Positions 4,171 to 53,357 of a DNA stretch of 56,232 bases are shown here, in pieces. Source of the DNA: a virus (lineage: Duplodnaviria > Caudoviricetes). Positions within the stretch are counted from its first letter, which is position 1. Every line of letters begins with the position of its first letter. The position numbers were made by a program, and so were the translations under genes. The notes beneath the pieces were generated by a model. The model was not told the DNA's origin, ran no database searches, and worked only from the letters and a program-made list of their open reading frames with translations. Location of the stretch: the IMG/VR virus record IMGVR_UViG_3300028027_000068, positions 1 to 56,232 of that record, one strand, 5' to 3'.

Positions 4171-4171
4171 C

Positions 4172-19800: not shown

Positions 19801-20031
19801 TCATTTGGAACCCCTTGATTTTTTGCTGTTAGCTTTAATCTTCTTAGCCAATTCTTCAACTGAGTTTTTGGCGCTAGAAAAGTTTAGCGCAACAGTGGCG
19901 TCTTCTGCCTGAACATCCTTAATGCCATTAGCTTCTATGTAGTCCATATAGGAATTACGCCAAAAACGTTGTACAGCGGCAGCCATTTGGTCGCCTTCTT
20001 TTTGGTTTTCTGGAGATTTAGCTGGGGTCAT
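19801..20031 (-). CDS. Hypothetical protein
   Basis: 76 aa, ATGA-coupled to the 1806 aa gene. Confidence 0.55.
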   Translation of the reverse strand: MTPAKSPENQKEGDQMAAAVQRFWRNSYMDYIEANGIKDVQAEDATVALNFSSAKNSVEELAKKIKANSKKSRGSK

Positions 20032-23000
20032 GGCCAGGTGCTTCCGGTTAGGTAGTTGGATAATTCGGGAAATGCTCTTGCGAGTATTGCTCGTTGATTG
20101 AAACTGAGCAAGTTTCTAGTCACTCTACTTGGAGAAAGTGCTGCAGTCAAAGTTTCTGATAACCATTCGGGAGGAGAGCTTGCTGCATAATCGCTGACGG
20201 AATCTTTAAGCATCATGTTTACAAAGCTCAGGTCAATACCGGCAGCAGACTGCCAACTTGGTTTGTTAAGCAGAGACAGAATAACATGCGCATCCTGGGC
20301 GTCTTGATTTTTAGGGTCTGCTTCTATGTCGAGTTTTGCTTTAGCTAAAGCGTTGTTGTGTATCGAGTGGGACGCCTCGTGCCGCAATACCGTCACAGGG
20401 CTACCCTCGTCAATAACCGCAGGCCTAGAGAACTTGCTCATTCTTTGTGTAGCAAGAACCTCGGTGTACCGCGTAATCATACTTAATGGGTCGTCTGGAA
20501 ATCTGTCTATGAAAAACTCCGGGCTGATTCCCCAATGCCCGCGAAGCAACAGTTCAGGGTCTTGGAGAGCATCGTTTACTTGTGCTCCCTTGGGAATAAA
20601 AGAACTACTACCAACCGGGAGTATTGCAGAAATACTACTGTTCATTAAAGTCACACCATTACCTGCTCCAGGCATGTTTTGTGCACGCACTTCTGAGTTG
20701 GGGAAAAACTTGGGCTTACCATCTGCTCCAGTTATTTCTTGAGCAGAGAAAATTGCAAACTGTGGAAATCCGTAAGTGTTGGCAAGAAGGTACATTTCCG
20801 GAGAGGCCATATACATCATCTCAATGTTGTACTGAAGCTGCTGTAAATGCCATGGGTTAAAATCCGGAGCGTAGTTGTTTAACCTTTTAGACAGGTATGT
20901 TTCTGCAGATATTCTTTGCTCGGCATTTACCATTGCTATGTACTGAGCCTTAGTCATCGGGCTTCCATCTGGATTTATGGCAGCAGGGTCTGCCTTCCAC
21001 TTATTGCTTTGGTTAATGTCGGCTAGGCGTTTAATAAAAACGGGATTGCGCTGAACATAGTTTTGCATTGCTCGTTCGCGAAGCGACTGCATGTCTTGAG
21101 CTATGAGGCCTTTTGTTATTTCGCGTATGTCGCCTAAACGTCCTAGATATTTTTCTTGAACTTTTGTTCCCATAGAGCCAGTAATTTTGGAACTCCTGCC
21201 CAGGTTTTTTTCAAATGTTCCTGTGATGGGGTTAAAGGTTTCAACCTGCTCAAGGGTGATTTTTTTAACTTTTGTTCGCTGTCCGTTGCGCTCTATGTAG
21301 TCAGTTGATGTTCTAACATACTTAAATCTTCCTTGCGTCACCTGCTCTGTAACGTCTGTAACCCATTCGCCACCGATGTTAAATTGATGCATATACTCCT
21401 CACCAGCAGCATCGCCAGTACGGGCTCCTGGGACTATCTCTAGTATTACTCCAGGGGTTGTGTCACCATCTACGCCAATTGCATACATTTTTGCTGTTTG
21501 CAGGTCTGAGGTAAAAGCCGACAACGGCAAAGTTATTATTTCGCCAGCTGAAAGATTCATCACCTGGTCCCCGGGAGTAACGTTTGAAAGCCCTCTATAT
21601 ATAGGGCGCATGTTCACTTCTTTACCACTATTAATGTAATTAAGACCTATGAAAGCATCACGAATAGCCCTACGAGCATCGTTCATTTCCGAACGAGAAA
21701 TATTCGGCGTTGTTCCGTTGCCAAGAAGGTCGTGAACGTGTGTGCCTTCATCGTCTCCCATGTATCCAGCAGAGCTTGGAAGAGGTTCACCCATTAGTGC
21801 AGCAGAAGCAAGACGCATGCCGTAGTTGCCGCGCCATCCAACCCATTCATCGTATGCATCTACCCACTCTGTATATTCATTAGGGTTTACATCAAAAGTA
21901 AAATCCAAATCTCCGTACTTCACGGTGACTGTTGAGTTTTTATTATCTTTTTTGACTACATCTATAGATGTTGTAATCTTTTTACCCTTAGTGGGATTTT
22001 CGTTAGCCATTGCGCCAGTAATAACTCCCGGCGTTTTGATTGTTTCACCACGTGCTGGAGGAGTGTCGGCATCTGTTTTTGGCAGTTTTGACCTTCTGTT
22101 TGCCCTAAGGGAAGACGGCTCAGTAGGCAGTACTGAAGAACTTGTAGCTCTTCTTCGTAGCTCTGCTCTGGTAAAGTTTTTTCCACGCCTAGGTGGAGTT
22201 ACTATCTCTGTTGGGTCAACGGGGTACTCGTCCTGAAATGCAAACCCACCTTCGTTTCTTCCTCCCGGTCGTGTTCTTGCCAGTACGTATTCATTAGCCC
22301 CAGTCGTGCTTAGGATTCTGTTTACAGTAGATACAGATATCTTATTACGTGCTGCAATTTCTTTTTGAGTAAACTGAGTAGACAAAAAGTCACGTACTAC
22401 GTCACGTTCTAATTTTTCTTTAGCGGCCCACCAGTCTGAAGACACTGCTCCAGATATTTTTCTTGTCTCTCTGCGTGCTGTTGTTTTGTTGGTCTTTGGC
22501 TTTGGTTTTCCAATTGAGCCTGACAGCTTTTGTTGAGCTGATTCTCTACGAGCCATAGCTTCGTGATATTTAGTCCAGTCCCTACCTCTGTCATACATTC
22601 CTCCATGATAAGCAATTGATTCCTCGCTGTAAGCAGGACGAGCTCCTAAGACTTTTATTTTGTCTTCATCAAAAACAATTACGTGACTTGACTCTGCTCC
22701 ATCTCCTGGAGTGTTAATCCAAACAATTCCATCGTGACCAGCGGCTCGTGCTAAAAGATTTAATTCTTGTGTGGCCAACCCGCCTGCATCAGAATGCATA
22801 TTTATTTTTCCGCCATTAACTATTTCTTCATAGTATTTAATTTGCTCAGGGCTTGGTTCGTATTTAAAGGTTATTTTTACTCCAGCAGGAGAATCGTCTC
22901 CACCTTTAGCCACGTCTAGCAAGAGTTTGTACAAACCGCGTACTTTTTCTGTACCTCCTAGTTGTTTTATGTACTCTTCTTGCCTTTCCTCGAGTGTGGC

Positions 23001-25448
23001 AGCCCTATTTTTTCTTTCTTTAGAATCATCCGGATACCATTCATGTGTGGTATTTTCGTCAGGCTCAAGTACTCCGACATTTACAACTATGGGGTTTTCT
23101 AGCTCGAGTCTTGCCACGAGTCGTCTTATTTTCTTCAGCTCCTCTGTCGAGTTGCGGTGTAAATCTTCACCATAAGCTTCGGCCATATAGGGGTCGCCAT
23201 CAAAAGAAAAATTTCCGCCTCGGCCAAAATTTCCAGAACCTCTGATTTCGTACTTCTTTGATTTTATTATTGATTCAATGTCTGCTTCACTAGTTGAATG
23301 TAGGCCTAGTATTTTTACCGGCTTTCCAGTTTCTAAGTCGTAAGAATATACTGGATGATTTTTGTAATTGACAGAAGGCTCAGCGTGCCCTTCTCCAAGT
23401 TCAGGGTCGTCTACAACAGGCCAGCCACCCCAAAAACCAATACTCTTGCCAACTGCTTCGGCATCTAAGTCTAATTTAGGGTCGTCTATATAATCAAGAA
23501 TTGACTTTGTTGGTTTCGGAGTTGTGCCAATAGAGCCCTTTAATCCTGTTGAAGACCTAGGTATTGTCATCCGTCCGTCTTCATCTGGCAGTCGATACTT
23601 GACTAAGGTTTTAAGCACCTCTCCTGGCTTAGAATTTCTTTCTTTCGCCAACTCGACAACCGTCTTGCCGGCGTCATACATGTCAAGTAGTTCTTGGTCA
23701 TCTTTTGGAATCTCGATTGATGAATCCCTGGTTGCAGTTGTTCTCTTGCGACCTTTTTGCGCAGACACAATATTGGAAACCCTATTTATGGTCATTCCTT
23801 CTATTTCTGCTATTTCTCTAGTCGTCTTTCCGGCATTGTGTGCGTCAAGGATACGCTTAGCTCGTTCGGGATTCGGCTTCCAACGCGGCTCTTCTGTTAT
23901 TTCGCCACGTTTGCGTGCTTGATTTAGGGCCCAGCCAACTCCCTGTACGGTTGTTCCTTCTGCTTCGGCTATATTCTTGCGACTTTCACCAGCTTTATAC
24001 CTTTGAACAATTCGCTTATCACGTTCTGTCATCTGTGCTGTTCTTGCCATTGCTCCAGTAACGCGAGAAGGTTTGGGGACACGTGGTGCTCCCGGTCTTT
24101 CAAAACGTGTTGCGTCTTGTACTTTTCCGTCGCCGTCGGCATCTATAGCATTAGGGTCAAACCGGTCAGGGTTATTTAGTTTGCGTAGAGACTTTTCATC
24201 AACGGGAACGTTTGCGCGCTTTTTTACAAAAGACGAATGCATTTGTCCTGTTTCCACAATATTGTTATCCACCATTGAGTGGAGATATGCAACCGCACGT
24301 TTTCTGATTGTTTTAGGCTCTTCAGATAGTGATTTTGTCTTAGGTCGAGAGTAAGTAATAGGGTCATCTATGCCGATTATTTGCCTCATTGTGTCTCTGT
24401 CTATCCACGCATCACGTTTTTCTTGGATTATTTCCCAAATCAATCTTTTGGCTTCTTGGGCTGTTTTAATTCCTCTTTTTTCGTCAACTTCTTCCCATGC
24501 CGCAAGTTGAGATGTCATTATTCTGTCAAAGAACCCCCATGCTACTTGGTCGATTATTTCGTCATCGCCTTCACTCACTGTTTCAGCAGCATGAACCATT
24601 GCTAAATAGTTAGCCCACTCTCCGTGCCTATCAAAGCCACGCCCGGTTCCAAGATGTCCGTAAAAGTCATGCATGACTTGTACGTATTCCATCTGATACA
24701 TCTCTGTGCCAAACATCATGTCGTTTGAAAGTCTTAAAAAACGTTCGTATATTGCATCAAATGGATGGAAAGGCGTACCTGGCATATATTGTTCGCCAAG
24801 AGATTCACGCATATCGCTATATTCGCTGCGTGGAAGAAACAGGCCATTGTCGGCTTTTTTGTACAACTTCTCACTGATTGTTTCGGCGTACGCGCGTTTC
24901 TCATTTTTGTTTTCTTTAAGATTTTCAAGAATAGCTTTATACATTCGTATTCTTGCTTCAGACGAGGGAATCCTTACGTTAGAAAAATCCCCATCAAAAC
25001 CAATCAATTCTCTTATCTCGGGGATAGGGGGAGCAACGATTGTAAAAATACCATCAGGTGACGGTTCGATTTTTATACCATTGACTAGGTCCATTATTCG
25101 TTTTTCGGACCATTGTCCTTTTGGGGTTACGTTTCTAATTCTAGAACGTTCAAAAAGTTCACGGTCTCCGCCGGCCATCTCAAATATAACCGAAGGTATT
25201 TTTTCCGGCGCTAAGTCATATAAGGATGGGTCCTTGATTAAAGCATCTATTATTTCAGGCACGGGTTGATTAATGTCAAAAGGCTTTGACATAGCCCCAC
25301 TAATAGTTCTTGCTGTTGCAGGGCGCTCAAACCTAGTTAGCTCTTGAACAATGCCGTCGTTGTCTCCATCTATGGCGTCCGGGTCGAACGCTTCTAATCT
25401 AGATGCACGACCTATTGTTGGAAGTTTTTTAATAACGCGGCGTGGCAT
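20028..25448 (-). CDS. Giant polyvalent protein: two FDP tags, zincin-like domain, HTH repeats, two ADP-ribosyltransferase-like domains, C-terminal HExxH peptidase
   Basis: MHDFYGH; HST...FGRG.NF...GHDGI...VIVF; YRGL...LSAFT...EQV; RHEASH...SDYA...PEWLSE. Confidence 0.75.
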   Translation of the reverse strand: MPRRVIKKLPTIGRASRLEAFDPDAIDGDNDGIVQELTRFERPATARTISGAMSKPFDINQPVPEIIDALIKDPSLYDLAPEKIPSVIFEMAGGDRELFERSRIRNVTPKGQWSEKRIMDLVNGIKIEPSPDGIFTIVAPPIPEIRELIGFDGDFSNVRIPSSEARIRMYKAILENLKENKNEKRAYAETISEKLYKKADNGLFLPRSEYSDMRESLGEQYMPGTPFHPFDAIYERFLRLSNDMMFGTEMYQMEYVQVMHDFYGHLGTGRGFDRHGEWANYLAMVHAAETVSEGDDEIIDQVAWGFFDRIMTSQLAAWEEVDEKRGIKTAQEAKRLIWEIIQEKRDAWIDRDTMRQIIGIDDPITYSRPKTKSLSEEPKTIRKRAVAYLHSMVDNNIVETGQMHSSFVKKRANVPVDEKSLRKLNNPDRFDPNAIDADGDGKVQDATRFERPGAPRVPKPSRVTGAMARTAQMTERDKRIVQRYKAGESRKNIAEAEGTTVQGVGWALNQARKRGEITEEPRWKPNPERAKRILDAHNAGKTTREIAEIEGMTINRVSNIVSAQKGRKRTTATRDSSIEIPKDDQELLDMYDAGKTVVELAKERNSKPGEVLKTLVKYRLPDEDGRMTIPRSSTGLKGSIGTTPKPTKSILDYIDDPKLDLDAEAVGKSIGFWGGWPVVDDPELGEGHAEPSVNYKNHPVYSYDLETGKPVKILGLHSTSEADIESIIKSKKYEIRGSGNFGRGGNFSFDGDPYMAEAYGEDLHRNSTEELKKIRRLVARLELENPIVVNVGVLEPDENTTHEWYPDDSKERKNRAATLEERQEEYIKQLGGTEKVRGLYKLLLDVAKGGDDSPAGVKITFKYEPSPEQIKYYEEIVNGGKINMHSDAGGLATQELNLLARAAGHDGIVWINTPGDGAESSHVIVFDEDKIKVLGARPAYSEESIAYHGGMYDRGRDWTKYHEAMARRESAQQKLSGSIGKPKPKTNKTTARRETRKISGAVSSDWWAAKEKLERDVVRDFLSTQFTQKEIAARNKISVSTVNRILSTTGANEYVLARTRPGGRNEGGFAFQDEYPVDPTEIVTPPRRGKNFTRAELRRRATSSSVLPTEPSSLRANRRSKLPKTDADTPPARGETIKTPGVITGAMANENPTKGKKITTSIDVVKKDNKNSTVTVKYGDLDFTFDVNPNEYTEWVDAYDEWVGWRGNYGMRLASAALMGEPLPSSAGYMGDDEGTHVHDLLGNGTTPNISRSEMNDARRAIRDAFIGLNYINSGKEVNMRPIYRGLSNVTPGDQVMNLSAGEIITLPLSAFTSDLQTAKMYAIGVDGDTTPGVILEIVPGARTGDAAGEEYMHQFNIGGEWVTDVTEQVTQGRFKYVRTSTDYIERNGQRTKVKKITLEQVETFNPITGTFEKNLGRSSKITGSMGTKVQEKYLGRLGDIREITKGLIAQDMQSLRERAMQNYVQRNPVFIKRLADINQSNKWKADPAAINPDGSPMTKAQYIAMVNAEQRISAETYLSKRLNNYAPDFNPWHLQQLQYNIEMMYMASPEMYLLANTYGFPQFAIFSAQEITGADGKPKFFPNSEVRAQNMPGAGNGVTLMNSSISAILPVGSSSFIPKGAQVNDALQDPELLLRGHWGISPEFFIDRFPDDPLSMITRYTEVLATQRMSKFSRPAVIDEGSPVTVLRHEASHSIHNNALAKAKLDIEADPKNQDAQDAHVILSLLNKPSWQSAAGIDLSFVNMMLKDSVSDYAASSPPEWLSETLTAALSPSRVTRNLLSFNQRAILARAFPELSNYLTGSTWP

Positions 25449-25714
25449 GATGACAATTACTTTGAAACTATTCCGTCTGGAATTACAGCAAATCTACATT
25501 TACCATTCGGTTCAATAGCTGCAAGCTCGTCTATTTCTTTTGAAAAATCATTCATTTTATTACTCCGTAAGAAAACTAATACAACATTATCCCATGTGGA
25601 CAAAACCCCCGGGCACTCTTGTTAAACAAGAAATCCCCCGCCTTCAATAACAAGGACAAGGGATTTCCTGGATAAGCCCTAAGGTAGGCATGTTTTAATT
25701 ATGCCATAGATAGC

Positions 25715-25751: not shown

Positions 25752-25765
25752 CCGCTTAATGCTTA

Positions 25766-27094
25766 TTAGGCTGCTACTGGAGCGTTGTCGAACGTTACAG
25801 AGACAAATGACTCTGGACGCTTGACAGCAAGCGCGAGGCGCTGCTCAGCAAGGATGACAATCGCGTTACGCACGAAGAAGTCTGCATGCTGTTCCGAAAT
25901 ACGGATGCTTGCTTGTTCACGGTCGTAAAGTTGAGCACCTGTACCGAATGCACCGATAAGAGCCTGGCCTACTGGCATTGCTGGAGTGTCCACGACAGGA
26001 ACGCGCCAAAGCTTTGGCTCGCCACCCATTGCAACCGAAACTGCGATGAGGTACTGACCGTTTGAGTCCTTGGTAAGTTCGATGTCTTCCCAGTCCTGTG
26101 GGTTCAAAACGACACCAGTTGGTTCGTAGTAAGCCAACAGGGCAAGAGTTGCGGCACGGCGGATTGCATCAGCCTTTGTGTCTGCAACTGGTGCTGTTGC
26201 ACCGTCTGACCAGTCGTATGTCTGAATACCGGTGGTGTTCAAGATTCCGTTAAGGTTTTCGCCAATGCCGTCACCTTGAAGGATTTGGTAATCCTCTTGG
26301 AGACGAAGTCCGTAAAGGAGTTCATTGTCGATGATTGAACGCAATTGTGGCTCGTCAGCAAGCACGTTGCGGTGCGCTGCTTCCCAGTGAGCGAGTGTGC
26401 GGACAGGAGCCTGCTCACCAACGAACTGGAATGACGATTGTGGCTTAGCAGCAAATGCTGCACCATTACGCTCAGCTACGGTTCCGGCGTTGTTTACTGC
26501 AGTGGTACCTGGTGTTGTGAAACCGAGCATACGGAAGTACTCGATAACAGCAGCAGTTGTGGTGCGTGCAGGGAACAAGTCGCGAACGCGCTTTGTACGT
26601 GTTGGAGGCGTGACCATAGGGTCACGCTGGACTGTGCCGAATGAACCAGGGTTACCTGAAGGAAGCGCCGAGTAGACGTCCTTTACGTTGAATCCGGCAT
26701 TTGCAACACTGCTGTTCAATACGAACGGTGAAGCCATGTTTGCGCCATTACGACCACCCTGAAGGGACTTGAACTCTGGTGAGTCAAGGAACATTTGACC
26801 AAGAGACTTGGCTTCTGCTGGACGGAATTGTGCACTTGCATCAAATGAGCTGGATACTGAGCTCTGTGGCTCTGAGCCCCACTGCTCAACTGACTTCATT
26901 TGCTCAAGGCCATCAATGAGGCTCTTGATTTCGCGGATGTCCGACATATTGCGGTCGAACGCTGACTTCTGCTCAGAGGAAACGACAACAATGCCGTCCT
27001 CTATCTTAAATGAGTCTGCGATGGTCTTGTTGTCGGCCATCTTTACTCGGAGTGCGCTCTGAAGCTCACTCAATCTTGATTCGTCAAATGACAT
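25766..27094 (-). CDS. Major capsid protein, HK97 fold with N-terminal delta domain
   Basis: AE....KPQS, TLAHW, LADEPQLRSIIDNEL, ILQGDG.GENL.GI, F.RN...ILAEQRLALAVKRPESF; AGGAG RBS. Confidence 0.95.
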   Translation of the reverse strand: MSFDESRLSELQSALRVKMADNKTIADSFKIEDGIVVVSSEQKSAFDRNMSDIREIKSLIDGLEQMKSVEQWGSEPQSSVSSSFDASAQFRPAEAKSLGQMFLDSPEFKSLQGGRNGANMASPFVLNSSVANAGFNVKDVYSALPSGNPGSFGTVQRDPMVTPPTRTKRVRDLFPARTTTAAVIEYFRMLGFTTPGTTAVNNAGTVAERNGAAFAAKPQSSFQFVGEQAPVRTLAHWEAAHRNVLADEPQLRSIIDNELLYGLRLQEDYQILQGDGIGENLNGILNTTGIQTYDWSDGATAPVADTKADAIRRAATLALLAYYEPTGVVLNPQDWEDIELTKDSNGQYLIAVSVAMGGEPKLWRVPVVDTPAMPVGQALIGAFGTGAQLYDREQASIRISEQHADFFVRNAIVILAEQRLALAVKRPESFVSVTFDNAPVAA

Positions 27095-27411: not shown

Positions 27412-27413
27412 GG

Positions 27414-28415
27414 TTACCATTTTGCCGTTCTTGGAGCCGTTGACCACCAGTTGGTACCCCCAAAGAATACAGCCAATGCTGTTTCGTCGTGTTCAAACTT
27501 TAAATCTTCAGCAAGGGATAGTTTCAAGATAATTCTTGGGTTCGTTGGGTCCGTAGTGTCAACAAGTGTTAAATCGTCTAAATATCCACTTCTCCAAAGT
27601 TGTGGAATTATGCCCTGAATATTACTGGCCATGGTGCTCACTATGCCGGAAGGGACTCCACGTCCAGTTTCTTCTTCTCGCTTTTTAACTCTTTGAACAA
27701 GTGTTTGAGTTGGAGCTAGGAAGTAATTTGCACTTATTCTGTATCCAGAATCGCGCATATCAGAAATTGTTTGATATCCGTTATTAAACTGGCCGCTTGT
27801 GTCGTAGATAATTGGTAACGCATTTGCTGCTGCATTAACTCTCAGTTCCTCAGCAATGTTTCTCGATTCCTGGTGAACGTATGAAGCCCCACCAGGCGTA
27901 AGGGTTGATAGGTGTCCCTGATACTCGGGTATTATTAATTTTGCATCGTCCGGGTCAACCATTACGCTGCGTCCATAAAGGCCGTCAATCACTCTTGCGG
28001 CATCTCCAGGGAGACTGTCTCTGTAAATTGTTCCCTCGGATATTTTTTCTGCCCAGTCCCTGAAAGTGCTCTTCATACTTGCCGACGAACCGCCGAGTAT
28101 GGAGAAGACCTTTTCATCTACATCATCAACTCTAAGTAATTTTACGCGAAGTATTTCGGCTTCTATATAGGGCACCCATATCTCTTTTTTTCTTACTGGG
28201 TCATTGGACGGCGTTCCACTTGGAAATATACGCATCATTGTGTCGAGGTCTGATTTGGTCATCACGTCCGGATGAGGTAAACCAAGCTTGTCATGAAGTG
28301 AATAGTCTGGTTGCCACTTACCGGAACGTGAGTTCCCGGGTGATTTGCCCTTACTTAAACCGCGACGTACGTTGTCGCGCATCTGGTCAATCTGCTCTTG
28401 ACTATAAAAAGCCAT
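27414..28415 (-). CDS. Zeta-toxin-family P-loop kinase domain, probably expressed as a -1 frameshift extension of 28502-30589
   Basis: LGGSSASMKST Walker A-like, VDPDDAK.IPEY, HQES, IYDTS, R..R....GRGVP; frame is open upstream to 28520. Confidence 0.8.
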   Translation of the reverse strand: MAFYSQEQIDQMRDNVRRGLSKGKSPGNSRSGKWQPDYSLHDKLGLPHPDVMTKSDLDTMMRIFPSGTPSNDPVRKKEIWVPYIEAEILRVKLLRVDDVDEKVFSILGGSSASMKSTFRDWAEKISEGTIYRDSLPGDAARVIDGLYGRSVMVDPDDAKLIIPEYQGHLSTLTPGGASYVHQESRNIAEELRVNAAANALPIIYDTSGQFNNGYQTISDMRDSGYRISANYFLAPTQTLVQRVKKREEETGRGVPSGIVSTMASNIQGIIPQLWRSGYLDDLTLVDTTDPTNPRIILKLSLAEDLKFEHDETALAVFFGGTNWWSTAPRTAKW

Positions 28416-28454: not shown

Positions 28455-28514
28455 CGCCCGACTTACTGCCGCTTCACTCTGTGCTGCCGGCAGGTCAGGC
28501 GTTATGCTTTTTTT
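28455..28514 (-). promoter_or_regulatory. Candidate programmed -1 ribosomal frameshift signal
   Basis: In-frame A AAA AAA (28514-28508), 6 nt spacer, hairpin cgcctgac-ctgccg...cggcag-taa-gtcgggcg (28501-28455). Confidence 0.7.
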
Positions 28515-45700: not shown

Positions 45701-47906
45701 TAGTTTTAAGAGGCCCGGCTCCTCCACCCAGCACATAAGCGTCAGTAAGTGCCGTAAAGTCAATCCAATCATTTAAGTTTGCGGTTGACAGTAGGTCTAG
45801 CCAGTCTTGTTCTCTGGAAGACATTCCTCCGGCAGGTGTTCTAGATGAATTAAATATTTCTGGCTTTGTTAATAGTGATTGTATAAATCTGTTATTTGTT
45901 CTTTGATTTTGGGGAATTGCTGCAAGTATTTTTTTAATTTCATCTGGTGAATAGGCTGAAAAAATAGACTGAACGGTGTTTTTTCTTCGATTATCCCTAA
46001 GTCTATTTCCTCTTGCTACGATGTTGTCAAAAGTTTGGTCTGCGTAGTCTTCTGCAACCTGGTCGGTTATATCATCAATATTTCTATCGGGAATACCGTT
46101 TCTATCTGGGTCTCTAAATGTTCTTGCTGCTCTAGCAATTCTTCGTCGCACTCCTGGTTTATCTATTACGCTGGCGTTGTTTTCAGGCTTTGTTATGTCT
46201 ATCCCGAATACGCCCATCATTAATTCATCAAGGTCTGGGTGTGGACGTTCTCCGTTTGGTATACGCTGACTATTTAGTTCGTCAATAGCTTGTTGTACCA
46301 TCTCTGGAAATTCTCTTGCCGTTACATAGAATTCCGCTCTTGCTTCGTTGTCTAAAAAATCACCATTACGGTCTTTTGCATGTGCGTATTTTGAACCTGC
46401 AAGATGTCTTAGTAAGTCGCCTATTTCTTTGGAATATATTCCACTATCTGTAATCATCTTGTCAGTAATGTCACTATAAAACTTATCCCATATTGATTCT
46501 TTTTGTGCGTCTGTAGTTGCAGTGCTTAAATCAGTTTTGAGCTCGCCATACTTTTCATAAAGCCAATGCTGCTCAGGAGTTATTAGGCCAGCATTGAGCG
46601 CTCCATCAATATCTCCATTAGAAATATCTTCTATTCTTTGTATAGCGTCGTTGTAGTCCGTGTCGTTGATATCTATGCCAAAACGTTTAAACATTTCATT
46701 GAAGTCGGTCAGGTGTCCAAATTCGTGCACCCCAACCCATGAGCCAAAATCTCTAGGACTTAAAGGCTCTTCGGCGTTACTGCTTGCGCCAATACCTAAA
46801 TATTCTGGAGTCTCTGATATTTCGTAATATAGTTCTGTAAATTTTCTAGGATGATACCTAAACGTGACAAACGGGGTTCCTAAATCTTTTACCTCATTGG
46901 GGGATGCCTCAACTACAAAGCCTTCGTTGGTAGCTGCAAGAGTTTCATCAAACTGCCAAAAAATTTCAGAATTCTCTGCGACCTCTCTGTTTGTTAAGGC
47001 CTCGTACAGCATAGAAGTAACGAACGCTTCCCGTAGGTCTATATAGTCTGCCAGCTCTTTGCCAAATAGTCCATTTGTATCGTTTAGAAAAGTATCTAAA
47101 CTTTGTTCGTCCATTTTTGGATACGCACGCATCATTGCTTTTTTGGCGTTAATTGCAAATCTTACGTTTCCAAATGTCTGAGCGACAATTTTTTCTTTTC
47201 TTTTTTGGTTACGCTTAAAAGTTAAAAATCTTTTGGCTCCTTCATTTCCGCCAAATAGCATTACGCCGTTGTCGTCAATTCTTTCGCCAACATTTAGTCC
47301 AACTGCTCCAGATAAGTTTCTTTTACCCGAGTTTTTGGCAGCAGACCGTACTGCGTCAGCGGCATCTCCAGCAAGTGTTGCGGCAGATGGGACCATACAG
47401 TTAGACATTTGAAGGTCCGTAAACTGGTTAGCCGCCGGTGTTCCGGCAGGGCAACGAAGTTTACCCATGTCATCGACAGGAATACCTCTCCCTCTGGCAA
47501 CCATGGCTATCAGCGATGTTGCTCCAGGCATGTTGTTGATGGTTCTTCCAAGCACAGATTTGGAAGCCATTAGGCCTATTTCGTTAAGGCTTCTTTTTCT
47601 TTGCGGTTTTTCATCGTCTAGAAATTTGGAGTTAGCAGAGGGTTCAAGGCTCAAGGAATCTAGTTTTATGACTTTTCCTGGAGGGAGAAGCGGAATCCTG
47701 TCTCCTTCTTTCCAGTTTCTTACCCAGTGCTGGAACTTTGTCTTTGCTGGTTTTTGAGGTTTTTTTTCGTCTTTAATATCAGACGTGTTTTTTTCAGCTT
47801 TATAGCGTGAACCAGCACCAAAACCATTTAAATTAAATTCGTCAGAAGAAACGTTGTTAAGTAGTCGTTGTTCAATGTCGCTTAACTTTTTACGCGGTTC
47901 AGCCAT
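42765..47906 (-). CDS. Giant polyvalent protein: RCP motif, two HExxH zincin domains, R-S-E type ADP-ribosyltransferase-like domain
   Basis: RCPAGTPAANQF; VHEFGH...SKYA...EARAE; FRGL...LSAFT...EVV; IHESIH...SRYG...EINAE; start MAEPR after GGAG. Confidence 0.75.
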   Translation of the reverse strand: MAEPRKKLSDIEQRLLNNVSSDEFNLNGFGAGSRYKAEKNTSDIKDEKKPQKPAKTKFQHWVRNWKEGDRIPLLPPGKVIKLDSLSLEPSANSKFLDDEKPQRKRSLNEIGLMASKSVLGRTINNMPGATSLIAMVARGRGIPVDDMGKLRCPAGTPAANQFTDLQMSNCMVPSAATLAGDAADAVRSAAKNSGKRNLSGAVGLNVGERIDDNGVMLFGGNEGAKRFLTFKRNQKRKEKIVAQTFGNVRFAINAKKAMMRAYPKMDEQSLDTFLNDTNGLFGKELADYIDLREAFVTSMLYEALTNREVAENSEIFWQFDETLAATNEGFVVEASPNEVKDLGTPFVTFRYHPRKFTELYYEISETPEYLGIGASSNAEEPLSPRDFGSWVGVHEFGHLTDFNEMFKRFGIDINDTDYNDAIQRIEDISNGDIDGALNAGLITPEQHWLYEKYGELKTDLSTATTDAQKESIWDKFYSDITDKMITDSGIYSKEIGDLLRHLAGSKYAHAKDRNGDFLDNEARAEFYVTAREFPEMVQQAIDELNSQRIPNGERPHPDLDELMMGVFGIDITKPENNASVIDKPGVRRRIARAARTFRDPDRNGIPDRNIDDITDQVAEDYADQTFDNIVARGNRLRDNRRKNTVQSIFSAYSPDEIKKILAAIPQNQRTNNRFIQSLLTKPEIFNSSRTPAGGMSSREQDWLDLLSTANLNDWIDFTALTDAYVLGGGAGPLKTIDAVRKERKRVKLEKRNSRQAGTASNKLTKKITGSISNPRISKLSGSMGWVNTSSLPPWSNEPNAPKVENRVSAVLSPVENSEKALLQWGEDSFEIDTSIDPNELWKSEAFNEWATFHGNFAMRYVSAMLMGQDVPMSEGYGSETLDEGLKSIHDELVSGSMKGVDAAKQKRVRQEIEYAIAALRTLNLPENSKPYEIFRGLTGVPDDASILNLKKGDTFELPLSAFTASEDWAYEMGEFTENGQGVILKVLPGAHSTPTNAEYIQNPTETFDNYFEVVTAGRFELIEIDDVEGEQTVITLRQTDTFDPLTSKYSPVKRPKQKTSADKNPETDTEIDGATGFERPAPRREVSRLTGKIKTSVSSPVKYGLSEDKEVKKFDGFDHTAALESVNKIIREIETRHGKIKTVGDAAKALKTVFKKVRINHMGENHGPDGKSELGDRLTKSEQAAIAGILYTLNNSPHLKSRRLILSHEISDGSFSINGSTAIMPRIGQNGGPDFPEYGIRINIPFNENVAGAIIGEDMNSIDGVGNQVAKALLLHAQTLSPGQERDSYEQAALVSFFVGTSIHESIHALDMPQINDKIHKAAMQEDPSLQTERARIDHIFKQAGTRDEVLKTFVMRDAIDDVTSSNAMRAIGASMEYEANGPEEFLKNGRLSIDEVNKMKAEIEARRDEASSLLNDPLLDLGEQLQAMLIAQSMQSMIDNLDNTISQLTTLTDDLEENINNGTPEQSIMGTLHRSVYDRGLNYLSDVFPPGHPGYGTDVDLTVDPAGNMVALIDGDGNPVKELKATPEYMESTIISFIQAKDFHSASENAGFSLAGLKDLLDDANIERDTNGNESFSLTNQIQGIDPAQVDDLVDTLGQAYVAALSAEHWAPGIDDEAKWELIDWMRAISRYGSLTHFRYRNGLTTPSKQSIISAEINAELITSLILGAGAARTPMSSQVRGAIINILDWVYGGDSWKSILPDVSLEALKVK

Positions 47907-47974
47907 TGCTACTCCATATATTAACAACTACATCATTCAATTGTATTTGCCCGGAGCGCACCGGGAAAGTATAA

Positions 47975-48250
47975 CTAGGCTGTTTCAGTGTCCGACGAGA
48001 CTGGTGCCTCTTCAACGACTGGTGCCTCTTCAACGACTGGAGCTGTAGCTTCTGTTGCTTCACTGGTTTCAGCTTCTGCATCTTTTGCCTTCTTAGCTTT
48101 TGCCTTTGATTCTTTTTGTGGTTCTGCAGATTCGCTCAAAAGAGAGCCGATGCCGGATGGCGCTGCTTTGTCTTCCTTGTTTTCAATAGCAATATCTGCT
48201 TTGTTTGTCTGCTGAAAAACGCCTGTTGGGGCTGCATTCTTGTGCTGCAT
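47975..48250 (-). CDS. Low-complexity acidic protein
   Basis: APVVEE tandem repeat (18 bp unit); GGAG RBS. Confidence 0.6.
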   Translation of the reverse strand: MQHKNAAPTGVFQQTNKADIAIENKEDKAAPSGIGSLLSESAEPQKESKAKAKKAKDAEAETSEATEATAPVVEEAPVVEEAPVSSDTETA

Positions 48251-49596
48251 TATTTTTCTCCCTCTATGCCTTGCTCTGCTGTGAGCATTTCAAATTCAAG
48301 CAAATCATTAAGGAAAGATTCTTCTTCAGACTTTCCTTCCATCTTCGCTTTGTTCTTGTCTTCTGCTGGAACCCAATTGGTAGGGATTAATTCCTCGAGG
48401 CCAAGGTCTAGTGCGCGCTTCATGATGTGCGCCTTAGCTGCTTCTTTGTCTTTTGCTCGGCCATATGCTTGAACAGCATTGCGAAGGTCTGATTCATCCT
48501 TGATTGGGTACGAACCATCTGACATCGCGCTTCCGCTCTTTGCCATCTGGTCACGTGACTCTTCGTTATAAGCACGCTTGAGTGCAATCTCTGCTGCTTC
48601 GGCCTCGATGGACTCTGCTTCGTCAAGTGTGTACTCGTCGTAACCAAGAAGCTCACCGTCAAGGGAAACGAACACGTCGTACGACTTGCCGTCAAGACCC
48701 TCAATCTCTACCGCGTATGCATCAAAGCCTTCAAATACGTCTGGTTCTACAGCAACAACGTCACCGAATACGCTCTTTGTTGCAATCTCTGCAGCTTCTG
48801 AGAAGCTAATAAGGCTTTGGTTCTGCAGCCCGGACTTAACGTTCAAGACGTCCGCATTAAGCATGTGCCATCCCATTACCTCGGCTGTTTCACCATCAAA
48901 GAATATTTCAATTGGCTTGCCGTCTTTACGTTCAACATCAACAATGAAAAGGTCTGCATCGTCCGAGTAGCCGGAGTCAAGAACCTTGCCGCTGAACATG
49001 TCTTCAGCAATGCCTTCAATCTCTAAAATTCCAGGCATTTTTCCTTCGGGCATACATCCGCCTGGGCAGCTGTCGCAAACAGATTCACCCATTGGGTATA
49101 CCTTGCGCTCAAACTGACACATAAATACTTCGTCAGTCTCCATGTCTGCGGACTTGAATCCCATCGAGTTCAGGCGACGCATACGCATTTTCTTGCGCAT
49201 ATTTTGCATTGCTTGCGTTTCTTCTTCTGCTGGGTCCATTGACATCTTGGCTTCTTCTTCATCCATCGGCATGTCAGCTTCTTCTTCGTCCATGGCCATT
49301 GGCTTCTTCTTTTTGATGGGGAACATTTGCTCTTCTTCCTCATCGTCCATCATTGGAGCGGCGGCTTTGCGACTATTCTTCATAGGCATTTCTTCTTCGC
49401 CCATTTCATCTTCCTCGTCTGCCGCGTCTTCAAGGTCCATGTCTCCCATGTCCCCTTTAGCCATAACAGCCATTGCGCCGCACTTACCGCAGGCCTTGTC
49501 GCCAGCTTTAAATCCGCACTCAGACGCGTCAACGCCTTTAGCGCAGCTAGCTAAGCTTCCATCTGCGTTTAGTTTTACGATAGCTTTTTCCTGCAT
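48250..49596 (-). CDS. Acidic head-module protein (scaffold-like) with PepSY-like domain and DGSYPI...YGRA domain
   Basis: Met/Glu-rich tract; ISFSEAAEIA...GDVVAVE...YAVEI...DG...V.V...GE; AMSDGSYPI....DLRNAVQAYGRA; start MQEKA after GGAG. Confidence 0.65.
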   Translation of the reverse strand: MQEKAIVKLNADGSLASCAKGVDASECGFKAGDKACGKCGAMAVMAKGDMGDMDLEDAADEEDEMGEEEMPMKNSRKAAAPMMDDEEEEQMFPIKKKKPMAMDEEEADMPMDEEEAKMSMDPAEEETQAMQNMRKKMRMRRLNSMGFKSADMETDEVFMCQFERKVYPMGESVCDSCPGGCMPEGKMPGILEIEGIAEDMFSGKVLDSGYSDDADLFIVDVERKDGKPIEIFFDGETAEVMGWHMLNADVLNVKSGLQNQSLISFSEAAEIATKSVFGDVVAVEPDVFEGFDAYAVEIEGLDGKSYDVFVSLDGELLGYDEYTLDEAESIEAEAAEIALKRAYNEESRDQMAKSGSAMSDGSYPIKDESDLRNAVQAYGRAKDKEAAKAHIMKRALDLGLEELIPTNWVPAEDKNKAKMEGKSEEESFLNDLLEFEMLTAEQGIEGEK

Positions 49597-49835
49597 TATG
49601 GCTCCTTGTGTTGGATTGTCTTCATAAGACAACCTTTTTGATTTGTGCACCCTGCACACGGTTCGTAGCGCTTTTCGCCCGTGACTATGCACTGATACTT
49701 ATGTTGAATATTCGCTAATTGCCTTGAAGTAGCATAACCCATTGGAGAGCGTCCCTGGGTGTACTTCTCGTCACGAATACCGCCATTAACTGGCTTTGAG
49801 GATGGCCGGCCAGAAGGCTGACCGGCCTTAATCAT
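49596..49835 (-). CDS. Small Cys-containing hypothetical protein
   Basis: C...CAGC...C; coupled in operon. Confidence 0.55.
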   Translation of the reverse strand: MIKAGQPSGRPSSKPVNGGIRDEKYTQGRSPMGYATSRQLANIQHKYQCIVTGEKRYEPCAGCTNQKGCLMKTIQHKEP

Positions 49836-50170
49836 TTTAAATAGTTATTCATTCCTTTTACGGCTAGCTGAATAGCTTCGATTGTGTCCTCGGCAAGGTA
49901 GTCAGCATCAGTGATGGTGATTTTTCCTCCCGAAACAGTTGCATCAATGCCGTGGTAGTCAAGGACTGGGTCAATGATTGATTTAACCTCTCTAATCATT
50001 GATGGTGATGCTTTTAGCATTATTTGACTTGGCTCTTGTGAGCCGTCCGTGCCGACGGTTGATGGCATTAAGGAAAGAGTTACTTCGTTCCCCACAGGCT
50101 TAGTCATGACAACCTGGCCAGACTTGACCTCTATGTCCAGGGATTGGTTTATTGATATAAAAGCTTCCAT
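49832..50170 (-). CDS. Hypothetical protein
   Basis: 112 aa; VLDYHGI resembles VCDYHGI in the protease tail. Confidence 0.6.
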   Translation of the reverse strand: MEAFISINQSLDIEVKSGQVVMTKPVGNEVTLSLMPSTVGTDGSQEPSQIMLKASPSMIREVKSIIDPVLDYHGIDATVSGGKITITDADYLAEDTIEAIQLAVKGMNNYLK

Positions 50171-50180
50171 TTAATTACCC

Positions 50181-53100
50181 TTAATACTCTTCGTCTTTTT
50201 GTAAATTCTTTATATGAAGATTTAGGTTCTCTTTTAGCTGACGATAAGTCTGCTCGGTCTGATTAGCCACATCCCATAAATTCTGCAGGCGTGCAGCTTC
50301 TTTTGTAGCTTCTCTTTTATTCATGTCTTCCCAGCGCATCAGATGTTTAATAACGCCCTCTTCATCTTGCCAGCTGAGTCTTTCGGCAAGAGCATCGTTC
50401 CAGTCGTTATTTATCCCTCTAACCATTTCTTTCCATCTGGTTTTCAGGTCGTAAAGAGCATCTTCTGCTTCTTCTAGCGACAGGTCGTCAAACTTGGTGT
50501 CTGTAACTTTGTCATGCATATCCCAGGCTTCGTCGCCGTCTTTAGCATTAAGTACCTCATCTAGGGCTGAGCCAGGATTTCTCGCATCGACGTCTGGATT
50601 TTTCTTTTTTGCCCCCATGGCCCCTGAAATTCCGCCCCTGCTATCAGTGTCTCCACCCATGCGGTTGTCGTCCATTTCTGCGTTTTGGTAGTCACGTCGT
50701 AATTTAGCTAACTGACCTTGCAGACCTCGTATTTTGTCTTCCGGTAGATTGAAGTCTCGGGCTTGGGAGGATGCGTCTTCTGGGTTTCCAACCCTTTCGG
50801 TTATGGTAAGGCTATCAAATAGCTCCCGAGGAAGACCGGTACGTTCAACCATTCGTTCAATGGCGGCCTTTTCCCAGTTCTGAAGTTTAGGTGGGCGTTT
50901 TCCTGGCTCGTCCCCGCTCATGGCTCCTGAGAGACCAGCTCTTCTTCTGGCGTTTCTGGCAATTGTGAGTTCGTATTCCATTGGGGTCATCCCGGCAATC
51001 ATCGTTCCGCCGCCGCCGCCATCTATTGGAGCAACACGCGGTGTATCAGCCATGTCTCTTTGGAATTTTTTTCTTTGTGCTGGTGTCATGTTTTTAAGAA
51101 TGTCATCCATACTCTGTGGCTTGTCTGAGCTCATGGCTCCTGAGAGACCAGCCCTCTGTGGGACTCGTGGCTGTGACGGAACAGAAGGACGGGCTGGGGT
51201 TGGCGTAGAGGGAACGGATGGCTTGATTGGTACATCTTCTCTACGAGGAACCTGGATTGGTTTAACCTTGGGCATCATTTGAGGCGCTTTAGGAGCATCA
51301 GGGCGCTGAAAGGTTGTTCCCTCTTGAATAACCCTGTCTCCGTCAGCATCTATTGCGTTGGGGTCGAACCTATCCATTCTATTGGCTCCCATTTGGCCAA
51401 TGCGGCGAAGTTTTCCACCTACACCCTTTGCACTGAAACCTTCAGACATGTTTTGAGCAATATTCATTACTGCTTCGTAACCCTCTTCAGACAATGAATC
51501 GATAAACGGTACGGCGACTCCATCTTCAAGCTCTTTAAGCTCGATGCCGTGGTAGTCACATACGGTCTTTACTAATTCCATAGCTGCGGACTTTTCATCA
51601 CCAAGTGCACGAACAAACAGGTGGGCTCCTGGGGTCTGTTCTTTAAACATACTCCAGTCAATACTCGGCATTGAGGTTCCACATGTTCCGCCGCAGCCGC
51701 AGCCGCCGTGAGGTTTCTTTTCTACGTCTTCCATCATTTCACGATGTCCGTGTGCATACTCGCGTTCATCTTCGTCATCCTCCATGTCTGGGAAAGCGTG
51801 GCCTGGCATAATTCCGGCAGGCGTATTTACTGGTAAATAAACAGTTTCAGCACGAACCTGGTGCGGTTCACCAAACATAAATTCATCACCGTCAAAGTAG
51901 TAGGTGACCCTCATGGTTGTTGACTGTCCACCGTTACTTATGTCAAATATGACCATGTCTCTGTCGGCTGTTCTGATTTTCACAGGAGAGCTAAATCTTT
52001 CAGAAAGAGCTTTGGCAAGGTCTGCCATTCGCCCAACCGAGGTATTGGACATCGACTCCGGCGACTCGTATATAGCACTTTTTTCAGAGACTTGAGAGTT
52101 TTCATCCGTAATTGGGCCACCAACTACCCAAGCATCACACGTGCGAGAAGATGCGCACTTAAAGTCAAACGCTTCGCAGTACCCAAGCTCGGCGGCGTTA
52201 ATTACATCCCAAGCACTGTCACCAAGCTCACCGCCGGCTGCAAGGCCTTTTTGAATGCAGCTTTCCATGTCCGATGTCTTAATGAATACTGCGCAATTTC
52301 CGCATTTTTGTTTCTTTGCTTCAGTCGTATCGACATCCCAGCGAGATGCTTTTTTATTCCAAAATTTTTCATTTGCTTCTTTTGGATTAAGTGGGCCATA
52401 TCCAGCCGTCTCAATAGCTTTTTGTCTATTTTTAATATTTACGGAAACATCAGTTGTTGCTACTGGACACTTGTTTCCACCTTCAGCAGGGTCGGCTTTT
52501 GTTTTGTTTTTGCCATATCTGTCAAGCATTCTGCGACCTTTGGCAGCTAACTCTGCTGCGTCTTGGCGGTTTTTGGGTGCTGGCTCACCCCACGCTACGG
52601 CTGCAAGTGCAAGACGTGTTGGTTCCCCGTCTTCGTCGACCAGCGGGCCTGATGGATTTGTATAGAACCGAGTAAGGAAAGAACCCTTACGGCGCATCTT
52701 TTCAGGAGTGTCAGCAGGTCCTTTTACTCCGGGCTTCAGGTTTGCGCCTTCAGTTTCCTTAAAGTACTTGCGTCCTGCTGGAGTTAGTCCGCCTTTGGGG
52801 TCCTTTAGTTGTTGGTCCGCCTTTATGGATATGGTTCCAGTCAGTTGGTTTGCGCCATGAAGAACTGGAGAAACTTCATAAAGTTCCACTTCTTTAAGCA
52901 TATTGGCTTGCTGAGATGGGTCGAATACTGCATCAAGGGTTTTGTAACCAATAGACCATTCTTGTTCTTCGCCAAAGAACACAACGCTATTAAAGGCTTC
53001 CTTGCCTCTTTCGGACTTTAAGTTGAACTGAACACGTGCATATAGGCCGCCGATTCCAGCACGCTTCATCTTCATCGGAAGGCGCGGGTCGTTTGGCCCA

Positions 53101-53357
53101 ACTTCATAAATGTCGATAACCTTGCCGATTGGCTCGTTCCAGTTATGGCCCCATACGACACGAGGCTTACGGCGCTTAAGACTGCCTACAAACGCTCCAG
53201 GCAGACACACATCGCCTACTGAGTCTTTGTTACCAATACCGGCCACGAAGCATTCAACAATGCCTAGAGCCTCATCAACATTAAACTGACCTGGTATGGC
53301 TTTATATTCTGTAGCTTTTTCTTCAGTCGTTTGCATGTCTGTAAAAGATGACGGCAT
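50181..53357 (-). CDS. HK97-family prohead protease with long multidomain C-terminal extension
   Basis: D..GD...PGAF..SL, WGHNW..PIG, WSIGY, LKEVELYEVSPV..GAN; located next to portal. Confidence 0.9.
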   Translation of the reverse strand: MPSSFTDMQTTEEKATEYKAIPGQFNVDEALGIVECFVAGIGNKDSVGDVCLPGAFVGSLKRRKPRVVWGHNWNEPIGKVIDIYEVGPNDPRLPMKMKRAGIGGLYARVQFNLKSERGKEAFNSVVFFGEEQEWSIGYKTLDAVFDPSQQANMLKEVELYEVSPVLHGANQLTGTISIKADQQLKDPKGGLTPAGRKYFKETEGANLKPGVKGPADTPEKMRRKGSFLTRFYTNPSGPLVDEDGEPTRLALAAVAWGEPAPKNRQDAAELAAKGRRMLDRYGKNKTKADPAEGGNKCPVATTDVSVNIKNRQKAIETAGYGPLNPKEANEKFWNKKASRWDVDTTEAKKQKCGNCAVFIKTSDMESCIQKGLAAGGELGDSAWDVINAAELGYCEAFDFKCASSRTCDAWVVGGPITDENSQVSEKSAIYESPESMSNTSVGRMADLAKALSERFSSPVKIRTADRDMVIFDISNGGQSTTMRVTYYFDGDEFMFGEPHQVRAETVYLPVNTPAGIMPGHAFPDMEDDEDEREYAHGHREMMEDVEKKPHGGCGCGGTCGTSMPSIDWSMFKEQTPGAHLFVRALGDEKSAAMELVKTVCDYHGIELKELEDGVAVPFIDSLSEEGYEAVMNIAQNMSEGFSAKGVGGKLRRIGQMGANRMDRFDPNAIDADGDRVIQEGTTFQRPDAPKAPQMMPKVKPIQVPRREDVPIKPSVPSTPTPARPSVPSQPRVPQRAGLSGAMSSDKPQSMDDILKNMTPAQRKKFQRDMADTPRVAPIDGGGGGTMIAGMTPMEYELTIARNARRRAGLSGAMSGDEPGKRPPKLQNWEKAAIERMVERTGLPRELFDSLTITERVGNPEDASSQARDFNLPEDKIRGLQGQLAKLRRDYQNAEMDDNRMGGDTDSRGGISGAMGAKKKNPDVDARNPGSALDEVLNAKDGDEAWDMHDKVTDTKFDDLSLEEAEDALYDLKTRWKEMVRGINNDWNDALAERLSWQDEEGVIKHLMRWEDMNKREATKEAARLQNLWDVANQTEQTYRQLKENLNLHIKNLQKDEEY

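Follow-up and report, generated by a model that had tools for sequence, protein, structure and literature searches.

The 56,232 bases of an IMG/VR viral record (IMGVR_UViG_3300028027_000068; Caudoviricetes), analyzed here in their entirety and referred to as the window (estimated completeness, approximately 38%), encode five intact copies of a short peptide element, the tag, on the prohead protease protein and on three other large proteins of the head block. The tag is a phage-specific module that is represented in at least 862 protein clusters and, in an abundant and uncultured clade, is tied to the head block and the prohead protease. As judged from its sequence, it is an autonomous and previously undescribed module of 23 to 25 residues, of the DxDxDG type, with an arginine- and glycine-rich leader and a proline-rich trailer. 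The reading favored here, with a probability of roughly 0.45, is by analogy that the tag acts as an addressing module for prohead cargo, comparable to the capsid-targeting sequence (CTS) of phage T4, and that proteolytic processing follows. To our knowledge, it is only in a few model tailed phages that the choice of proteins to be packed beside the DNA is understood, and we know of no portable, sequence-defined address in HK97-type systems (those with an S78 protease). If the favored reading is true, it would explain how an abundant environmental clade keeps and reshuffles 20 to 30% of its genome as giant delivered proteins, and it would provide both a simple rule by which metagenomes could be screened for virion cargo and a compact tag by which foreign proteins could be loaded into phage capsids.

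Copies of the tag in the window

All five intact copies were recovered on the reverse strand by a pattern scan and by a profile hidden Markov model (HMM), at the positions at which a preliminary description of the window had placed them. The copy in the 1,058-amino-acid (aa) prohead protease protein (positions 50181 to 53357, reverse strand; Peptidase_S78, 5.8e-10; DUF6321, 2.7e-28; phrog_80, 5.1e-26) is FDPNAIDADGDRVIQEGTTFQRP at 51300 to 51368, with its first phenylalanine at aa 664, a basic leader at 51369 to 51428, and a candidate processing motif, SGAM, at 51132 to 51143 as the first such site past the tag (two more lie at aa 810 and 911). The 695-aa protein (28502 to 30589, reverse strand), which has no known family and is a paralogue of the C-terminal module of the protease protein, carries FDPNAIDGDNDGTVQEGSNFERP near its N terminus at 30416 to 30484 and GGAM at 30251 to 30262. 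The 1,088-aa protein (31243 to 34509, reverse strand) begins with the leader MPINNRISRRIGRLDR (34462 to 34509) and the tag FDPNAIDGDNDGVVQETTQFERP (34393 to 34461), followed by TGSM at 34357 to 34368 and by a NUDIX domain at aa 300 to 416 (Pfam NUDIX, 1e-15; phrog_1198). The 1,806-aa protein (20028 to 25448, reverse strand; HTH_23, 1.8e-07; Sigma70_r4, 2.2e-05) has two tags, starting at aa 21 and 431. The first, FDPDAIDGDNDGIVQELTRFERP at 25320 to 25388, follows the leader MPRRVIKKLPTIGRASRLEA and precedes SGAM at 25290 to 25301; the second, FDPNAIDADGDGKVQDATRFERP at 24093 to 24161, is internal, precedes TGAM at 24048 to 24059, and lies in a region that matches phrog_7924. Three of the five copies are thus near an N terminus.

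A degenerate DNA pattern run over the whole record matched five times on the reverse strand and never on the forward strand, and a reversed-pattern control gave 0 matches. With a local HMM built from 44 tags, the five copies scored approximately 63 to 71 bits and the rest of the window stayed at noise; a loose regular expression additionally matched an unrelated acidic site at aa 267 of the 1,088-aa protein. A codon-by-codon comparison of the five copies gave 167 pairs with an identical residue, of which 78 differ in codon, and a mean nucleotide identity of 71%; it is therefore the peptide that is conserved, and not recently copied DNA. Recent DNA duplication and a recombination linker were rejected on these synonymous changes.

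A sixth, degenerate site had been proposed in the 1,720-aa protein and proved to be a genuine relic. This site, ADKNPETDTEIDGATGFERPAP at 44661 to 44726 on the reverse strand, has lost the calcium loop and retains FERPAP; its IDGATGFERP stretch (aa 1078 to 1087, nucleotides 44667 to 44696) was not scored by the HMM. The module downstream of it is a separate protein with an intact N-terminal tag in all six homologues found, and in one locus (L022) the separate open reading frame (ORF) aligns residue for residue. The copy that has lost the loop is the fused one in the window.

The carriers had been described as otherwise unrelated, which holds for their payload domains, which differ greatly, and fails for three pairs of similar segments among the window proteins. 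Aa 654 to 1054 of the protease protein match aa 27 to 499 of the 695-aa protein (28% identity over 482 residues, 6e-30), aa 414 to 670 of the 1,806-aa protein resemble aa 1 to 266 of the 1,088-aa protein, and aa 1151 to 1427 of the 1,806-aa protein resemble aa 803 to 1083 of the 1,720-aa protein.

Conservation of the tag and likeness to calcium-binding loops

In the top 150 proteins, 162 tags were located, and their consensus is [FY][DN]P[ND]A[IWV]D[GA]DxDG[IL]VQ[ED]GTx[FW][EQ]RPA, with A5, D7, D11, and R22 invariant and Q15, D9, P23, P3, and T18 nearly so. Both D7 and D11 were present in all 162 tags, as was an acidic residue (E or D) at position 16, and counts at the remaining central positions were 159 for D9, 147 for G12, 146 for V14, 161 for Q15, and 131 for G17. 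In an alignment of 36 rows, 23 positions were conserved, 10 of them invariant. The basic leader and proline-rich spacer reported for the window copies were confirmed over the 162 tags: arginine made up 18.2% of the 20 residues upstream (versus 7.8% overall), with glycine also enriched, and proline made up 9.6% of the 30 residues downstream (versus 5.3% overall).

No Pfam or NCBIfam model covers the tag, the one NCBIfam match being at chance level (E = 0.14), and an Atlas search with the tag region gave no usable match. The family phrog_7924, which has no assigned function, covers a 103-aa tail-module protein, the C-terminal part of which matches the tag. No description of the tag was found in the main texts of the literature searched.

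The central pattern, D-x-D-x-D-G followed by a hydrophobic loop position 8 and an acidic loop position 10, is shared with the DxDxDG calcium loops of EF-hand, Excalibur, dockerin, and bacterial TSP3 proteins. Excalibur loops follow the pattern DxDxDGxxCE. The tag is unlike these families in having no cysteine, no visible flanking EF helices, and a threonine at loop position 12, and its flanks, FDPxA and FERP, are invariant and peculiar to it. None of the calcium-loop profiles matched significantly: EF-hand_5 matched 3 of 36 tags (best E = 0.14), Excalibur matched 1 of 36 (E = 0.034), and dockerin was not among the matches listed. The only nonspurious match in the PDB was the EF-hand of a polcalcin (E = 0.62); better-scoring matches to designed ankyrin repeats came about through DPNAxDxDG and were rejected as spurious. 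Since the D-x-D-x-D-G-x-V-Q-[E/D] pattern matches cation-binding loops of the DxDxDG type, metal binding is a reasonable expectation, and the loop probably binds a divalent cation.

Distribution of the tag

An exact scan of viral contigs with an 11-residue core of the tag returned 44 loci, in which the full 23-residue motif and its flanks are kept. When a profile of 36 tags was compared with 1.84 billion representative proteins, 862 clusters matched at E ≤ 1e-3, 188 at E ≤ 1e-10, and 5 at E ≤ 1e-30. The sources of these tags are nearly all metagenomic, with contigs of up to 156 kb. Across 185,579 prokaryote species (one genome each), a 9-residue core was found in 22 stretches, none of which was confirmed as a relative; by our rough arithmetic, tens of such stretches are expected by chance in approximately 1.2e12 translated residues. 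A generic bacterial calcium repeat, the kind of non-phage occurrence that the preliminary description had named as contrary to its proposal, was rejected on the basis of this chance-level count. A tblastn search of cultured phages with the tag segment returned nothing at E ≤ 1 and was a weak search, the query being short and the low-complexity filter on. The carriers belong to an uncultured clade of 115- to 156-kb phages, which probably infect Actinobacteria.

Genomic position and payloads of tagged proteins

Five long relatives of the window (G002 and G006 to G009) were examined, three of which are at least 98% complete (137 to 156 kb). The portal and capsid genes of these relatives are 24 to 45 kb apart, and 15 of 18 tag matches fall between these genes or just beyond the capsid gene. 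The portal-capsid interval is full of giant ORFs (up to 3,988 aa, in G002) and takes up approximately 20 to 30% of a 137- to 156-kb genome, an unusual layout for a head module. Homologues of the head-block proteins of the window were present in 31 of the 44 viral loci, and in 19 of the 44 the tag follows the protease, DUF6321, and a middle region, adjoining the portal-MuF gene and a 480-aa protein. A tag follows an S78 protease domain in 23 of the 150 top representatives, and Pfam Peptidase_S78 was matched in 14 of 20 long carriers.

Within proteins, 57 of the 162 tags begin no more than 60 residues from the N terminus, and the other 105 are internal, at module junctions; two or more tags were present in 42 of the 150 proteins. 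The payloads mostly have no known family. Those that could be recognized include NUDIX, HTH/sigma region 4, UvrD and DEAD helicases, GNAT, RNase_T, WYL, Zeta-toxin-like, DUF3626, and DUF7178 domains and an ATLF-like stretch, which, together with the protease and portal-MuF fusions, bear out the proposal of a portable tag on variable payloads. At least three independent fission or fusion events were found with the break just upstream of the tag. The order of a module like the 209-aa protein of the window, a tag, and a Zeta-like kinase recurs in approximately 20 of the 150 representatives, and this unit is one ORF in two loci (L020 and L040) and separate genes in the window. The two units of the 1,806-aa protein are separate in L017 and L038 and either fused or separate among relatives. 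The loss of the loop in the fused 1,720-aa protein is described above.

A candidate processing motif near the tag

The motif [STG]G[AS][ML], always with a hydrophobic residue before it (as in LSGAM and VTGSM), occurs 12 times in the head-block proteins of the window, versus a mean of 2.39 in shuffled sequences (standard deviation, 1.5; maximum, 7 in 200 shuffles). All 12 sites are in tag carriers or in the 1,720-aa protein; one lies 29 to 75 residues past each of the five tags, and two flank the module common to the 1,806-aa and 1,720-aa proteins. When G[AS]M was counted downstream of FERP over 294 tags, 21 occurrences were found at 0 to 20 residues and 11 at 40 to 60 residues, versus approximately 3 per bin. 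The enrichment is confined to these two bins, and the motif is therefore specific to part of the clade. A narrower pattern, [ILV][ST]G[AS]M, followed 9 of 195 tags and was rejected as a universal partner of the tag. That [STG]G[AS][ML] is a cleavage site of the prohead protease is speculation.

The major capsid protein has an invariant block, GGRNGANM[AP]SPF, at aa 112 to 123, near the expected boundary of its delta domain, with N116 to M120 invariant in 24 homologues. This block may be the maturation site of the capsid protein itself. It is loosely similar to the G[AS]M motif.

The tag as a putative capsid-addressing module

The tag opens each of the independently evolving cargo units among the giant multidomain proteins encoded between the portal and capsid genes. 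In the scheme that we infer, it would bind a conserved component of the prohead, either the interior or delta region of the capsid protein or else the 480-aa acidic protein, and in this way bring both the prohead protease and the cargo proteins into the prohead, where the S78 protease would trim or separate the units at nearby sites, for which the hydrophobic-[ST]-G-[AS]-M motif is the candidate, and the payloads would then be delivered along with the DNA. The interior or delta region of the capsid protein, which is at least 72% identical across relatives, is a likely receptor, with the 480-aa protein as the other candidate. Addressing would be the simplest account because the protease must enter the prohead and shares the tag with separate cargo genes, and because the tag marks the start of mobile units and decays where a unit no longer stands alone. 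Precedents exist in the T4 CTS and in the propeptides of phage SPN3US, as described in PMC7411985, and the payload repertoire is that described for virion-delivered polyvalent proteins in PMC5512222.

A broader version of this reading would make the tag a universal, cation-dependent address for the HK97-fold capsid, the counterpart of an encapsulin peptide, such that any polypeptide starting with it, the protease included, enters the prohead and the clade can freely shuffle, fuse, and split kilobase-sized effector modules within the 24- to 45-kb region. This version appears doubtful. The loop might in addition work as a calcium switch that is empty in the cytoplasm, becomes loaded in the free virion, and is released again on ejection.

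Several results weigh against an address for the prohead. Matches had been expected to be restricted to head modules, which the 15 copies noted above uphold and the other 3 of 18 do not; these are in a 2,703-aa ORF 15 kb past the capsid gene, in a distant 77-aa ORF, and, as a divergent copy, in a 3,082-aa ORF. Nor does the expectation hold for the 103-aa phrog_7924 protein, which carries a near-identical C-terminal tag after an acidic linker rich in proline, glutamate, and valine and has its gene immediately before that of the major tail protein in 4 of the 44 loci (L050 at 3984 to 4295, on a siphovirus-type contig, and also L041, L049, and L051). A 3,015-aa protein (P0084) has the order portal, MuF, tag, GNAT, tag, module, tag, and module, which makes it a portal-anchored polyprotein tagged at every junction. 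Small proteins of 134 to 235 aa (P0018, P0041, P0045, P0068, P0083, P0090, and P0143) contain tandem tags, and in P0041 a PG_binding_1 domain comes after the pair. The G[AS]M motif accompanies only a subset of tags (32 in the enriched bins, out of 294 tags). In the window, the HMM found no tag in the 1,513-, 681-, 480-, 333-, 214-, and 209-aa head-block proteins and only the relic in the 1,720-aa protein. A profile search of whole records detected tags in all five of the long metagenomic viral records and in none of three cultured phages (Gordonia phage Gray, Brevibacterium phage Cantare, and Arthrobacter phage Salgado), and Gray and Cantare have untagged toxin, HTH, and RNA-ligase genes between the portal and protease genes.

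Two observations concern the small proteins among these exceptions. The 77-aa ORF (locus L054; G007 131378 to 131479, reverse strand) has the divergent tag FKADARDGDGDGMVQDGTKHERPAP at its end, after a stretch rich in alanine and proline, and could represent either a genuine small gene or a remnant. Salgado gp63 (48 aa) is an untagged counterpart of the 103-aa protein, matching only its N-terminal half.

Alternative explanations

The portal fusion, the tail-module tag, the tandem tags with a peptidoglycan-binding domain, and the seven head-block proteins of the window that lack an intact tag all favor a rival reading, namely, that the tag is a general calcium-dependent structural minidomain of virion proteins (a hinge, linker, or knob) with no role in sorting to the prohead. 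Such a domain might become stiff or folded once the particle is in water rich in calcium, or it might function in the cell wall at the time of ejection. The near-invariant DxDxDG residues and the acidic residue at loop position 10 fit this explanation, and the EF-hand_5, Excalibur, and polcalcin matches are weak hints in the same direction; every match to a known calcium-binding family was, however, below significance. A structural role also leaves unexplained why the breakpoints fall just upstream of the tag, why the loop has decayed in the one fusion with an upstream module, and why the tag keeps so closely to the protease gene and the portal-capsid block. This explanation is held to be somewhat unlikely. 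Even as a structural calcium-binding module, the tag would be an undescribed phage-specific domain of at least 862 clusters that merits a family entry.

The near invariance of V14, Q15, the acidic residue at position 16, and G17 could alternatively indicate that the tag is itself the recognition and cleavage site of the S78 protease, cut, for example, after V-Q-[E/D], and that the giant proteins are polyproteins cut at each tag. V-Q-[E/D] resembles the hydrophobic-x-Glu sites of the T4 type, tags are present at the module junctions of protease and portal fusions, and two sources offer precedents in the cutting of SPN3US propeptides at a T4-like motif (PMC7411985) and in the proposed release of domains of polyvalent proteins by embedded peptidases (PMC5512222). 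Such a site is nonetheless the less likely account because the 23 conserved positions, 10 of them invariant over 36 rows, go far beyond what known cleavage sites need and because the capsid protein, which must be cut by the same enzyme, has no tag and instead has the GGRNGANM[AP]SPF block at its boundary. Cleavage at an N-terminal tag would moreover free a peptide of merely 35 to 40 residues, and this alternative is considered quite unlikely.

That the tag is a by-product, either a chance likeness among acidic, low-complexity stretches or a conserved DNA linker for module recombination, is very improbable: acidic stretches rich in aspartate and glycine are common, and the designed ankyrin matches show how they can mislead, yet true copies score 55 to 80 bits where other sequence stays at noise, the reversed-pattern control was empty (results on which, with the codon changes, chance was rejected), 47% of identical-residue codon pairs are synonymously changed, and the 862 clusters keep the same 23 positions.

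Comparison with known targeting and delivery systems

Among known systems, the addressing proposed here is close in outline to the T4 CTS, a short peptide common to differing internal and ejection proteins (IPI to IPIII and Alt) that are incorporated through the core, the peptide then being removed by the protease (PMC7411985). Many tags are N terminal with a candidate cleavage motif close behind, as would fit a CTS. Compared by description, the CTS is shorter (approximately 10 to 20 residues) and strictly N terminal, whereas the tag spans 23 to 25 residues plus flanks, contains a DxDxDG loop, and is often internal. The tag is also present on the protease itself, and the protease is of the S78 (HK97) type and not T4 gp21.

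Noncatalytic extensions of prohead proteases provide a second parallel, as a route by which the enzyme enters the prohead. The C terminus of the HK97 protease gp4 reportedly has a targeting role, according to 2013 work by Duda et al. The propeptide of SPN3US gp245 has been proposed to carry the protease into the prohead, and head proteins of giant phages (SPN3US and the phiKZ group) have propeptides that are removed by the prohead protease, a targeting role having been proposed for that of gp47 (PMC7411985). The extension of the tagged proteases differs from those of gp4 and gp245 in its size (800 to more than 3,000 residues), in its payload domains, and in having an element in common with separate cargo genes. 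No module common to the SPN3US and phiKZ propeptides is mentioned in the available portion of PMC7411985 beyond the cleavage motif, whereas the tag is one domain in all of its carriers.

Encapsulins also combine an HK97-fold shell with a short peptide common to unrelated cargo enzymes, and their cargo genes lie near the shell gene. Their peptides are short, are usually C terminal, and have no calcium-loop signature, and the tag system differs further in belonging to a phage that packages DNA and has both a portal and a protease.

The tagged giants share with polyvalent and MuF-fused proteins their multidomain architecture, their position among virion genes, their nucleic-acid-related, regulatory, and toxin-like domains, and their MuF and portal fusions. 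Iyer et al. (2017; PMC5512222) predict that polyvalent proteins are packaged and delivered and that embedded peptidases release them. Large proteins that combine several conflict-related or early-function domains among virion genes, the hallmark of that class, were found here, and no zincin-like metallopeptidase was among the Pfam matches of the carriers. The assemblin-like peptidases of polyvalent proteins are described there as C terminal, whereas the assemblin-like S78 domain is N terminal here (23 of 150 representatives), and the words “calcium,” “EF-hand,” “DxDxDG,” and “linker” are absent from the text of that paper. The window differs from MuF polymorphic toxins in that its MuF domain is the C-terminal part of the portal protein with nothing after it and in that none of the carriers of the five tags has a MuF domain.

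Organization of the head block and likely host

The rightmost 36 kb of the window is a single block transcribed leftward. From the portal end, the gene order is portal-MuF, the 1,058-aa protease protein, the 480-, 1,720-, 214-, 681-, and 1,513-aa proteins, the 1,088-aa NUDIX protein, the 209-aa DUF3721-like protein, the 695-aa protein, the 333-aa Zeta-toxin-like protein, the HK97-fold capsid protein, and the 1,806-aa protein with HTH and sigma-70 region 4 matches; all of these genes are on the reverse strand. The portal protein (748 aa; 53441 to 55687) is fused to MuF (Phage_portal, 5.2e-52; Phage_Mu_F, 2.4e-09; phrog_2662 portal, 1.7e-103). The protease protein consists of the S78 domain (aa 10 to 196), DUF6321 (aa 185 to 256), a cysteine-rich middle region, the tag (aa 664 to 686), and the C-terminal module paralogous to the 695-aa protein. 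The middle region is conserved between DUF6321 and the tag at aa 296 to 420 and 550 to 562 (KCGNCAVF...C...C and HGGCGCGGTCG), which suggests metal-binding knuckles within the protease fusion.

The 480-aa acidic protein (48250 to 49692) had no Pfam or PHROG match. It is very acidic, being rich in aspartate, glutamate, and methionine at aa 80 to 160, contains two PepSY-like repeats, and probably starts at residue 33. Wherever a related locus extends far enough, a homologue follows the protease gene; the compared regions of Gray and Cantare contained none. Its Atlas neighbors are viral clusters with PepSY in 14 to 17% of members, which is a lead only. The protein is a candidate scaffold or core protein. 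The 1,720-aa protein (42765 to 47927), with no intact tag and no known family, is composed of an N-terminal module and the module that stands alone elsewhere. The 214-aa protein (41804 to 42448) is untagged, rich in cysteine and histidine, and without a known family in the Pfam and PHROG searches. The 681-aa (39751 to 41796) and 1,513-aa (35213 to 39754) proteins likewise have no known family and are untagged here; one homologue of each is tagged, N terminally in the former case (P0141) and at aa 152 in the latter (P0114). The 209-aa protein (30630 to 31259) matched DUF3721 at 1.2e-4, under the curated cutoff, and the untagged 333-aa protein (27414 to 28415) is a Zeta-toxin-like P-loop kinase (Zeta_toxin, 8.7e-12). 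The capsid protein (442 aa; 25766 to 27094) has the HK97 fold (Phage_capsid, 1.1e-45 at aa 163 to 435; phrog_10), with a delta-like N-terminal region of roughly 120 to 160 aa in alignments.

In the 1,806-aa protein, matches to HTH and sigma-70 region 4 are repeated at approximately aa 471 to 514, 587 to 618, and 1014 to 1047, and GerE and sigma region 4 also occur in related tagged giants. Regulators directed at DNA or at RNA polymerase may thus be delivered.

An approximate motif, RCPxGxxxGGxF[ST]xxxxxxC, was noticed in the 681-aa (aa approximately 121 to 143), 1,513-aa (approximately 184 to 205), and 1,720-aa (approximately 157 to 178) proteins, all of which lack an intact FDP tag. A strict regular expression recovered only the 1,513-aa protein and its two homologues, and the three-way likeness is therefore one seen by reading the sequences.

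The closest cultured relatives of the capsid protein, at approximately 50% identity, are those of Gordonia phages Gray and GMA6 and Brevibacterium phage Cantare, all myoviruses of Actinobacteria, and one capsid homologue is labeled by NCBI as coming from a Pontimonas metagenome-assembled genome. The host of the window phage and its clade is therefore likely to be actinobacterial. The left part of the window contains genes for replication and nucleotide metabolism and, at 2373 to 3356, a gene for a 327-aa protein that combines an Rpf-like transglycosylase (PF06737, 4.1e-13) with a lysozyme- or SLT-like domain, which, together with the cultured capsid relatives, hints at the same host.

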